Part shown: piece by piece, positions 54,774 to 56,675 of the stretch
Layout of the letters: each line of letters starts with the position of its first letter
How positions within the stretch are numbered: the first letter of the stretch is position 1
Origin: Nannocystis radixulma
Lineage (GTDB): Bacteria; Myxococcota_A; Polyangia; Nannocystales; Nannocystaceae
Assembly (NCBI RefSeq): GCF_028369095.1
Contig: NZ_JAQNDN010000024.1
Coordinates: 217,350-281,349, forward strand
Length of the DNA: 64,000 nt
Direction of reading: 5' to 3'
Made by a program: the position numbers and the translations under genes
Notes under the pieces: model-generated
The model's database searches: none
What the model was told of the DNA's origin: nothing
What the model saw: only the letters and a program-made list of their open reading frames with translations

Positions 54774-56675
54774 ATGCCTCCAGAGTTCGATCGCTGGGCG
54801 AGATGGGCGTACGAGCAGGCAATCCAGCGTGAGGGGCACGTCCAGTTTGATGGGCTCTGGAAGCTCGGAGGACAATATTTCGTCGTCTGTCCAGACCCTG
54901 CGGCCCGCAGTTCGGACGGGCGGCCGTTCGCCGAGTGGTTTATGAATTCGTGTCGGCCGATGACCTCTCCGGTGCGGCTCGTCATGCAAGCGCCGCCCGG
55001 AAGTGAGCGTGTTCCAGAACGGAAGCTCGAAGATGCGCTTCTCTGTCGGGGATCGCCGCGGACTCACTACGATCTTGTTTTCGATCTCTCGAATGCTGTC
55101 CCGCCGGATTTCCCGCCTTTCACGGTGCGGGATGAGCCTCCGCACAAGATCGTCATAACGTTTGCTCGTGAGATTAGCCAGGAAGAAGAGGCTGTCGTGC
55201 GCCATGCCTATGAATATATAGGCGTGGGATTTGAGTTGATAATTGAAGTCGACAAAAATCGACGGATTCCGGTGAATTTCTCTGAAATTCGTCCATCTTC
55301 TCCTGGGGAAACGAATATTGATATTATCCCTGGCAGATGGCTCGGCGGCGACATAGGGCGTTCCCTGCGGTGGATGCAGGAGGAGGACGAAGAGTTTTGG
55401 CGTTCCAAGCGAGTCCCCATCCTCGAAAATATGAGCCTCACACCGTCAGCCGCCCTGAGTGTCGACTGGTTCAATCCTGGCAACTCTTGCGTCATCGATG
55501 CTGCAGTAGGGGAGTATGACAATCTCAGAACGTATCTTTCACTGTATGACCGGGTTCTGCTCGCACTCCCTCTGCGTGAGAGATTCTCCGAGGCACTCTC
55601 CGGGCTCGGTGTAAATGAAAACGAACTGATCGAACTCATTCAATTGGGACGGGTGCGGCTTCTGCTACCTCACTCCATTCAACGGTACCCCACGAAATGG
55701 CTGGAAGCAGTGGCGGAACTTGCGCCCGGTAATATGCTGTTGTCGCGACGACTTGCTCTCGCCACGATTCTGGATTCACGACGGCGCATTCCATTGCTCT
55801 TTCCGCCACTGTCCCCCTATGAGCGTTACCTTGTACTTCGAGGATTGACGACCATGGCCGAGCAAATGCCGGCGAGTTCGATTAAAGACTGGATGCTAAG
55901 GATTTCCCGACAGCTCGGACAAGGGTGGGCTGCACAGGAGTATACGCTGTCAAGGCGCGGGGCTCTGGCGACCAGTGTGTGGGGATTGGGAGCTCTGGGG
56001 GCCGAAATGGTAGAGCACATGTGGGGAAGGGATCTCCGCCTAGAGATGTGGTCTGCGAGCATGGGCGTGGAGTGGTCCGGGTTGTTCGGCGCACACCTCT
56101 TTCCTCGAACTTTGGGTGAATATGATGAGGCTCCTGCCTGTGAGATGCTTGCAAATATTTATAGTGTTCATGGTGACTCCCCAGTTCACGTGGAGCAGGC
56201 GAGAACCCTCTCTGTCGTGGGGGGGATGCTCGCACTTGACAATAAGGTTCCGATCGTGCCGTTTGCGCGCGAGTTTTCCAGTTCAGATATTAGGCGCCTG
56301 AGGACCGTCATGCGACGCCTGACGAGCGAGAACATGGACGAGGACTTTCTTCGGAAAGCTATTGATGATTATAATGTGTCGATCCGGCAGTATGAGCGCC
56401 GTCCCGATCGTCTCAAGGTCGTAAATCTAATTGGGCTGACCGCTGCGATGATCACTGCCTTCGGCCTCGTAGAGGGTCCTGTGCGAACCTATCTACCCCT
56501 TATGGGAGCAATGTTGGGGCCGTTACTCAACGTTGCGATCGATGAGGGGCCTGCTAAGTCGGAGTCTGTGGGAAAAATCGTCGATTACCTAAATGGAGTT
56601 CTTGCGGGTGGGGTTCCGCCAGAAGCGGTGTTGGTGGCGAGGGCAAAGAAACAGGTAAAAATTCTTAAGGGATGA
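54774..56675 (+). CDS. orphan hypothetical protein (633 aa) with strongly atypical low GC content
   Basis: A single long ORF with no competing frames. Long stretches drop to ~40-50% GC (for example 55201-55330 and 56161-56420) against a ~70% background. No domain recognised. Confidence 0.6.
   Translation: MPPEFDRWARWAYEQAIQREGHVQFDGLWKLGGQYFVVCPDPAARSSDGRPFAEWFMNSCRPMTSPVRLVMQAPPGSERVPERKLEDALLCRGSPRTHYDLVFDLSNAVPPDFPPFTVRDEPPHKIVITFAREISQEEEAVVRHAYEYIGVGFELIIEVDKNRRIPVNFSEIRPSSPGETNIDIIPGRWLGGDIGRSLRWMQEEDEEFWRSKRVPILENMSLTPSAALSVDWFNPGNSCVIDAAVGEYDNLRTYLSLYDRVLLALPLRERFSEALSGLGVNENELIELIQLGRVRLLLPHSIQRYPTKWLEAVAELAPGNMLLSRRLALATILDSRRRIPLLFPPLSPYERYLVLRGLTTMAEQMPASSIKDWMLRISRQLGQGWAAQEYTLSRRGALATSVWGLGALGAEMVEHMWGRDLRLEMWSASMGVEWSGLFGAHLFPRTLGEYDEAPACEMLANIYSVHGDSPVHVEQARTLSVVGGMLALDNKVPIVPFAREFSSSDIRRLRTVMRRLTSENMDEDFLRKAIDDYNVSIRQYERRPDRLKVVNLIGLTAAMITAFGLVEGPVRTYLPLMGAMLGPLLNVAIDEGPAKSESVGKIVDYLNGVLAGGVPPEAVLVARAKKQVKILKG

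Follow-up and report, generated by a model that had tools for sequence, protein, structure and literature searches.

A foreign gene between two convergent host genes

The stretch analysed here (the window) is a 64,000-nucleotide segment of the genome of the myxobacterium Nannocystis radixulma (contig NZ_JAQNDN010000024.1, positions 217,350 to 281,349), and its most anomalous feature is an intact open reading frame (ORF) for a 633-amino acid (aa) protein that matches a hypothetical protein of this species at 100 % identity (Table 1). The GC content of this ORF is 55.3 % (0.63, 0.44 and 0.58 at the first, second and third codon positions), compared with 70.7 % for the whole window and 70–80 % for its immediate flanks, in agreement with the original prediction, made from the sequence alone, of a low-GC ORF in surroundings of about 70 % GC. 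Measured against a baseline of 62 host-like ORFs that encode 150 aa or more, with the reference for the codon adaptation index (CAI) derived from the window itself, the gene is an extreme outlier both in third-position GC (GC3; 0.58 vs 0.919 ± 0.047, z = −7.2) and in CAI (0.26 vs 0.709 ± 0.103, z = −4.3). It has the lowest GC among the long ORFs of the window and also occupies the lowest-GC kilobase; the compositional anomaly is real and far above chance level. The further statement that the ORF contains long stretches at 40–50 % GC was overstated: the string quoted in its support is indeed present (55210–55265, 37.5 % GC), but only 15 % of the 100-nucleotide windows inside the ORF have a GC of 50 % or less, and the median window has 56 %. 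The surrounding genes, named in the prediction as scoA, DJ-1 and DUF4291, were located as CoA_trans, DJ-1_PfpI and DUF4291, and all three are typical of the host (GC3 0.94–0.96, CAI ~0.80–0.81).

Table 1. Features of the foreign segment, its flanking genes and the predicted regions of the encoded protein
Feature	Window position	Strand	Protein residues	Remarks
CoA_trans (CoA-transferase) gene	53168–53884
DJ-1_PfpI (DJ-1/PfpI) gene	54041–54634
Foreign segment, maximal extent	54635–56708			2,074 bp, bounded by the DJ-1/PfpI and DUF4291 stop codons
Upstream non-coding part of the insert	54635–54773	+		139 bp, 62 % GC
Protein-coding gene, phrog_36744 family	54774–56675	+	1–633	intact, ATG start
Two small α/β modules			1–160	predicted secondary structure
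Linker			161–195	predicted secondary structure
Long helix			196–218	predicted secondary structure; near-invariant motif E203-x-D205-E206-x-F-W209
Most conserved part	55485–55853	+	~238–360	strands 238–242, 260–264 and 294–297 and the first helices; C239, R252, P266, L288, P299, Y305, R325, R338, P340
Three-stranded α/β unit			238–297	predicted secondary structure
Large helical region			300–541	predicted secondary structure
Helical hairpin	56412–56540	+	~547–589	lowest-confidence part of the model
Two terminal helices			597–633	predicted secondary structure
AT-rich 3′ tail of the insert	56676–56708			33 bp, 45 % GC; adjoins the DUF4291 stop codon
DUF4291 gene	56709–57296	−

The 2,074-bp gap between the DJ-1/PfpI and DUF4291 genes holds this ORF only, with 139 bp upstream and 33 bp downstream of it. 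Anchoring on DUF4291, we recovered the syntenic loci of Nannocystis sp. RBIL2, N. pusilla, N. exedens and N. bainbridge (L004–L007), in which the same two genes are separated by 100, 453, 454 and 284 bp, respectively. The flanks of all four species align to the window at 83–90 % identity up to position 54634/54638 and resume from 56709. The spacers between them bear no resemblance to the insert, and a tblastn search of the four loci with the target protein detected no gene fragment. Furthermore, GC changes abruptly at both ends of the segment, from 0.74–0.80 to 0.62 at about 54635 and from 0.36–0.40 to 0.68–0.80 at about 56700, and both steps coincide with the stop codons of the flanking genes. 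Because the flanking genes lie 100–454 bp apart in four sister species and 2,074 bp apart here, with only this gene in between, a recent, lineage-specific gain of a single gene by horizontal transfer in N. radixulma is strongly supported, and the original description of the gene as compositionally foreign and recently acquired holds. The reverse view, that this is a vertically inherited housekeeping gene with a merely unusual composition, could appeal to its position among housekeeping-type genes and to nothing more; it is refuted by the absence of the gene from the junction in four congeners, and the extreme GC3 and CAI values as well as nearest relatives of at most 44 % identity, from other families and phyla, leave it with virtually no probability.

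The slot itself is a small hypervariable spot within the genus. In N. pusilla (L005:10589-11041) and N. exedens (L006:10589-11042) it is occupied by an unrelated high-GC ORF of ~139 aa (MRTRQQRLADFAER...), in N. bainbridge (L007:10589-10872) by ~284 bp with imperfect repeats of GATCGTTCGGCGACGCTTCGTGA, and in RBIL2 by only 100 bp. The window contains no tRNA genes, no integrase, transposase or other mobility gene lies near the insert, and direct or inverted flanking repeats, a target-site duplication and terminal inverted repeats were not found at the insert above chance. The 139-bp upstream segment is similar neither to the sister spacers nor to the DNA upstream of homologous genes.

Signals for expression of the gene are faint. 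Inspection of the upstream segment by eye revealed a weak −35-like TTGACA (54739–54744) followed, after a 17-nucleotide spacer, by TTTGCT (54762–54767) only 6 nucleotides before the ATG; the consensus promoter scan did not report this pair. Because no Shine-Dalgarno motif is visible, the mRNA may be leaderless. The 33-bp tail contains no terminator-like hairpin, and an Rfam search of positions 54000–57500 yielded no RNA elements. Within the ORF, on the plus strand (55202–55227), a hairpin with an 11-bp stem and a T-containing tail behind it was flagged as terminator-like, but it is probably a by-product of an AT-rich stretch because the count of such hairpins is below the shuffle expectation. 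The want of a consensus promoter, a Shine-Dalgarno motif and a terminator, together with the very poor codon adaptation to the host (CAI 0.26) and the housekeeping-type surroundings, is what one would expect if the N. radixulma copy were a functionless passenger, recently inserted, unexpressed and due to decay. However, the frame is intact across 633 codons, homologues align with the protein over its whole length and every near-invariant residue is kept, and we therefore regard this possibility as quite improbable. It is in any case compatible with any function of the family and says nothing about members elsewhere, where purifying selection is seen.

Some other regions of the window also deviate from the host composition. 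The second-lowest-GC long ORF (28557–30371, plus strand; 604 aa, 63.7 % GC, GC3 0.79) lacks Pfam matches and may likewise have been acquired, at an earlier time. It sits just upstream of a vault-like gene, a 906-aa ORF on the minus strand (30641–33361) that matches the Pfam families MVP_shoulder (E = 7.9e-9) and Vault_3 (E = 5.5e-8) and thus encodes a major-vault-protein-like protein in a myxobacterium. GC is moderately lowered, to 61–65 %, at 58000–59600; this stretch includes an ArsR/HTH_20 regulator (58016–58375, minus strand), and two ORFs in the same area (58507–59577 and 59397–60695) have no Pfam matches.

A sparse, cross-phylum protein family

The gene had been called an orphan, and a word-indexed protein search seemed at first sight to leave it nearly so, with two homologues only, from a Polyangiaceae metagenome-assembled genome (MAG; 40 % identity) and a 'Deltaproteobacteria' MAG (32 %), a number that did not grow even with an 87-sequence profile. 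It is nevertheless not an orphan, because an exhaustive HMMER search of 1.84 billion representative sequences recovered 385 clusters at E ≤ 1e-3 (205 of them at E ≤ 1e-30) and because the PHROGs collection holds a matching family, phrog_36744. Nearly all of the HMMER homologues are 600–650 aa long and align with the target from end to end, the closest at no more than 44 % identity. Named members come from Chondromyces apiculatus, Fictibacillus, Enterobacter, Cronobacter and Escherichia coli, and further ones reside on plasmids of Bacillus cereus, Photobacterium and Salmonella. All 10 of the sampled 90 %-identity clusters were singletons (nine found on one contig, one on three). In E. coli, the gene is present in 189 of 5,426 complete genomes, always as a single chromosomal copy; the Nissle/CFT073 member is WP_001106251.1. 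The ratio of nonsynonymous to synonymous substitution rates (dN/dS) between two pairs of E. coli alleles is 0.13–0.14, on small counts (13 synonymous and 7 nonsynonymous changes in one pair, 19 and 10 in the other), which indicates that the gene is under purifying selection in this species. The very sparse distribution across phyla, on islands and plasmids, fits the accessory role that had been proposed for the gene.

As the original prediction stated, no known domain is recognizable in the protein: searches of Pfam, NCBIfam, PADLOC and the PDB sequences gave no match to the target (for PADLOC-DB v2, none at E ≤ 10). Comparison of 63 family members with Pfam and PADLOC produced nothing meaningful beyond one marginal PADLOC match (E = 0.0022), nor did comparison of the family profile with the PDB sequences. 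Four N-terminally extended homologues (P0006, P0030, P0092 and P0108) contain no recognizable fused domain. The only curated match is phrog_36744 (PHROGs v4), to which the target aligns over aa 93–562 (profile positions 90–549 of 613; E = 1.3e-39, 137 bits). Four family members other than the target also match it, one of them full-length; the E. coli member spans all 613 profile positions (E = 2.9e-90). This is the sole family membership that can be asserted for the target, and the entry carries no name, function or category. Tblastn with two queries against 50,697 phage genomes (INPHARED) gave no match, and pattern scans of IMG/VR with two queries found no family member. A phage origin was rejected on this lack of matches with either query, and phrog_36744 itself probably derives from prophage or island predictions because no member was found in these phage collections. 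The accession numbers of family members are mentioned in no paper that we found. For the Salmonella member, the locus tags STM2763 and STM2764 were considered; they proved to be integrase fragments, and we make no locus-tag claim. The degenerate-pattern search for loci was built on the narrower alignment A3, alignment A2 being too divergent.

Predicted structure and conserved residues

The AlphaFold2 model of the target, computed from 87 family sequences, has high confidence (mean predicted local distance difference test score, pLDDT, 92.3; predicted template modelling score, pTM, 0.91). Neither solved nor viral structures include a significant relative of the predicted fold, and no fold match was obtained in the BFVD collection. 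Conservation is fairly even along the chain, with a peak at aa 241–360 and no hypervariable region. Residues conserved in at least 90 % of the 87 members include G27, W55, P74, G93, F113, P114, D205, W209 (100 %), C239, R252, P266, L288, P299, Y305, R325, R338, P340, W385, G396, E424, P444, N534, D604 and R623, and the Nannocystis copy retains every residue at this level of conservation. Among these conserved residues, those that are Arg, Asp, Glu, Asn, Cys, Tyr or Trp point to a possible centre for catalysis or ligand binding.

PIN-like and HUP/USP-type α/β/α domains are among the closest known systems. A PIN-domain nuclease was nevertheless rejected because the key Asp of the PIN site, that of the first β-strand, is not conserved: of the 87 members, 37 have D at the corresponding position 242, 27 have N and 23 have another residue. 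There is also no Pfam PIN match.

The RefSeq record of the Salmonella member names it a 'membrane protein'. In the Nannocystis copy, aa 549–567 of the C-terminal hairpin are the sole segment with a hydrophobicity value (KD19) above 1.6 (1.78). Across the family, however, the median KD19 of the hairpin is 1.45, only 26 % of the members exceed 1.6, and values of no more than ~1.0–1.05 were obtained for the E. coli and B. cereus members. Because the hairpin is thus only moderately or weakly hydrophobic, integral membrane location was discarded as a property of the family; a membrane-inserting role of this hairpin is possible for the Nannocystis copy and is not supported family-wide.

Mobile cargo and a candidate defence function

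Family genes are carried on integrative islands, on plasmids and in IS-rich or defence-rich regions, where they usually adjoin integrases, insertion sequence (IS) elements or relaxases. GC of the gene is below that of its flanks in 17 of 20 independent loci, by 5–13 points in nine of them; the deficit of ~16 points in Nannocystis is the most extreme of the compared loci. Clustering of the neighbours at 28 loci revealed no conserved partner gene among diverse members, and relaxed blastp and phmmer comparisons detected no homology among the adjacent ORFs without assignment. On these results a hidden two-gene system was rejected; because no neighbour is common to diverse loci, the gene is standalone, one full-length unit without a conserved partner.

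Nevertheless, the neighbourhoods are rich in genes of genetic conflict. Directly beside the family gene on the B. cereus plasmid are AbiH and a complete type I restriction-modification (R-M) system. On the Photobacterium plasmid the gene is accompanied by the RnlA toxin and Hok/Gef, and on the Salmonella IncHI2 plasmid it lies between integrase fragments, near DUF3883 and a DEAD-box helicase. In the Polyangiaceae MAG, an AAA_15/AAA_21 ATPase and DUF6119 are immediately upstream, and the locus of the 'Deltaproteobacteria' MAG includes a DNA methylase, metallo-β-lactamase (MBL) plus ThiF/JAB genes and T5orf172. The Chondromyces locus contains IS66 and DDE transposase remnants, metagenome contig L085 an integrase, HTH_17 and HNH, contig L116 a thicket of IS66, IS21 and IS3, and contig L117 an integrase fragment and YhcG/DUF1016. 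Immediate neighbours in other metagenome loci are NYN with UvrD, NERD-UvrD, SMODS, a ResIII helicase with HTH_17, and RHS/Ntox16. Among 100 neighbouring ORFs that we scanned, there were matches to the PADLOC models GajB and LmuB, to AAA_15/21, to an N6/N4 methylase, and to relaxases and markers of integrative and conjugative elements (ICE). In the 'Deltaproteobacteria' MAG, the stretch L002:3522-7048, which stands near the DNA methylase and T5orf172 in the island of the homologue, consists of an MBL-fold gene followed by a 795-aa fusion of ThiF (E1-like) and Prok-JAB and looks like a ubiquitin-like conjugation-type conflict module.

The E. coli members occupy an especially informative site. 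In E. coli Nissle and in strain A28, the family gene is the first after the tyrosine integrase of an island next to zinT/yodB, and two divergent E. coli alleles occupy this same site. The island is PAI-serU (22 kb, 38 % GC; PMC7545054), a pathogenicity island (PAI) that additionally carries pilV, a pilin gene, traD, mobQ and tcpC and encodes another TIR protein as well as one with a macro domain; the matches from 'human gut' metagenomes represent the same island. The family member in PAI-serU (the tcpC island), like the Nannocystis copy, lies far below host GC (32 % vs ~41–50 %). Unlike PAI-serU, the Nannocystis insert is a single gene without integrase, tRNA, relaxase or repeats. In Nissle (L122:13741-24529), the TcpC TIR NADase and the second TIR-domain and macro-domain proteins are encoded beside MobQ and type IV pilus genes, a gene set as reminiscent of a mobilisable defence island as of a virulence island. 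We found no paper on the serU site as a defence hotspot.

These observations could also mean that the family serves the mobile element itself, in maintenance of islands and plasmids, addiction, or exclusion of or competition with rival elements, with the Nannocystis copy being stranded cargo. The position directly after the integrase in PAI-serU, where two divergent alleles share one site, the plasmid locations beside the addiction-type modules Hok and RnlA, and the IS-dense or integrase-bearing regions with relaxases and ICE markers would all agree with such a role. Yet the Nannocystis and Fictibacillus copies are alone on the chromosome, without a mobile backbone, and still intact, no partner or antitoxin gene is conserved, and many of the genes nearby are genuine anti-phage genes and not of the maintenance type. 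We consider an element-serving function unlikely, although it is the strongest of the competing explanations.

A bare single-gene insertion of ~2.07 kb entered the N. radixulma lineage and landed in the variable slot between the convergent DJ-1/PfpI and DUF4291 genes. The explanation that we favour for the family is that it is cargo of mobile elements and that its product would be a self-contained, one-protein conflict module of the abortive-infection (Abi) type, directed against phages or mobile elements. Sensing and effector activity would be combined in one cytoplasmic polypeptide, with a putative catalytic or ligand-binding centre formed by the ExDEDFW helix, the α/β core and the following helices (E203, D205, E206, W209, C239, R252, Y305, R325, R338, E424, D505, R508, N534, D604 and R623). 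The conflict or defence part of this proposal follows from the recurrent defence-gene neighbours, the sporadic distribution, the GC below that of the host and the lack of members in phage genomes. In being standalone, of similar size, sporadic and of lower GC than the host, the family is like AbiH, the Abi_2/AbiD-F class and other one-protein systems, and like single-gene Abi proteins it is found in the company of R-M and further defence genes on plasmids and islands; in sequence and structure, however, it matches no Abi-type protein.

Several findings weigh against a defence function. No known defence model in PADLOC matches the target or its relatives, the gene does not sit in a defence island in Nannocystis, and both here and in Fictibacillus the gene lies among ordinary chromosomal genes. 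Defence-type neighbours, such as AbiH with R-M, RnlA, NERD-UvrD and SMODS, recur in several homologue loci, whereas several other loci, including this window, show none. The suggestion of the original prediction that the gene is a defence gene is thus borne out as guilt by association at the homologue loci, and neither the locus in Nannocystis nor a match to a defence model adds to it. A role outside genetic conflict, as a stress-related, envelope-associated or enzymatic accessory protein that spreads through usefulness in a niche, would sit well with the lack of defence-model matches, the 'membrane protein' name in Salmonella and the one clearly hydrophobic helix in Nannocystis, as well as with the even, enzyme-like conservation and its many invariant Arg, Asp, Glu and Asn residues. 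However, the hairpin of the E. coli and B. cereus members is too weakly hydrophobic for a transmembrane anchor, adjacent metabolic operon partners are absent, and neither the very sparse, singleton-cluster distribution nor the recurrent restriction, Abi, Gabija-like and CBASS-like neighbours are typical of niche-metabolic genes; this alternative appears somewhat less probable still than service to the mobile element.

Taken as a whole, the reading of the family as mobile-element cargo that is most likely a self-contained one-protein conflict or defence module, the defence part by association only, stands in our judgement at an even balance. True anti-phage or anti-mobile-element defence, taken separately, falls somewhat short of that balance and is put forward tentatively, and any specific biochemical mechanism would be distinctly doubtful.

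As a case of horizontal transfer, the insertion in N. radixulma is ordinary, and, with the empty site visible in four sister species, it is a clear textbook case. The chief interest lies in the protein family, a conserved single polypeptide of ~620 aa with a confident but unmatched predicted fold and no curated function, which we regard as an unstudied candidate, a standalone cargo protein of defence islands. With the same reserve as for the defence function, it may represent a previously unrecognised single-protein defence family, with a fold unlike any solved structure, that is carried as bare cargo across Myxococcota, Bacillota and Enterobacteria, one member being the first gene after the PAI-serU integrase of E. 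coli Nissle 1917 and strains of the CFT073 type. Should the family indeed act in defence, a new mechanism that needs a single gene would be added to those known. A member under purifying selection is present in E. coli Nissle and in strains of the ST73 type, so that standard phage panels can test this directly, and, if it is true, part of the 'pathogenicity island' PAI-serU, which also harbours the TIR and macro-domain genes, would be reassigned to a role in immunity.

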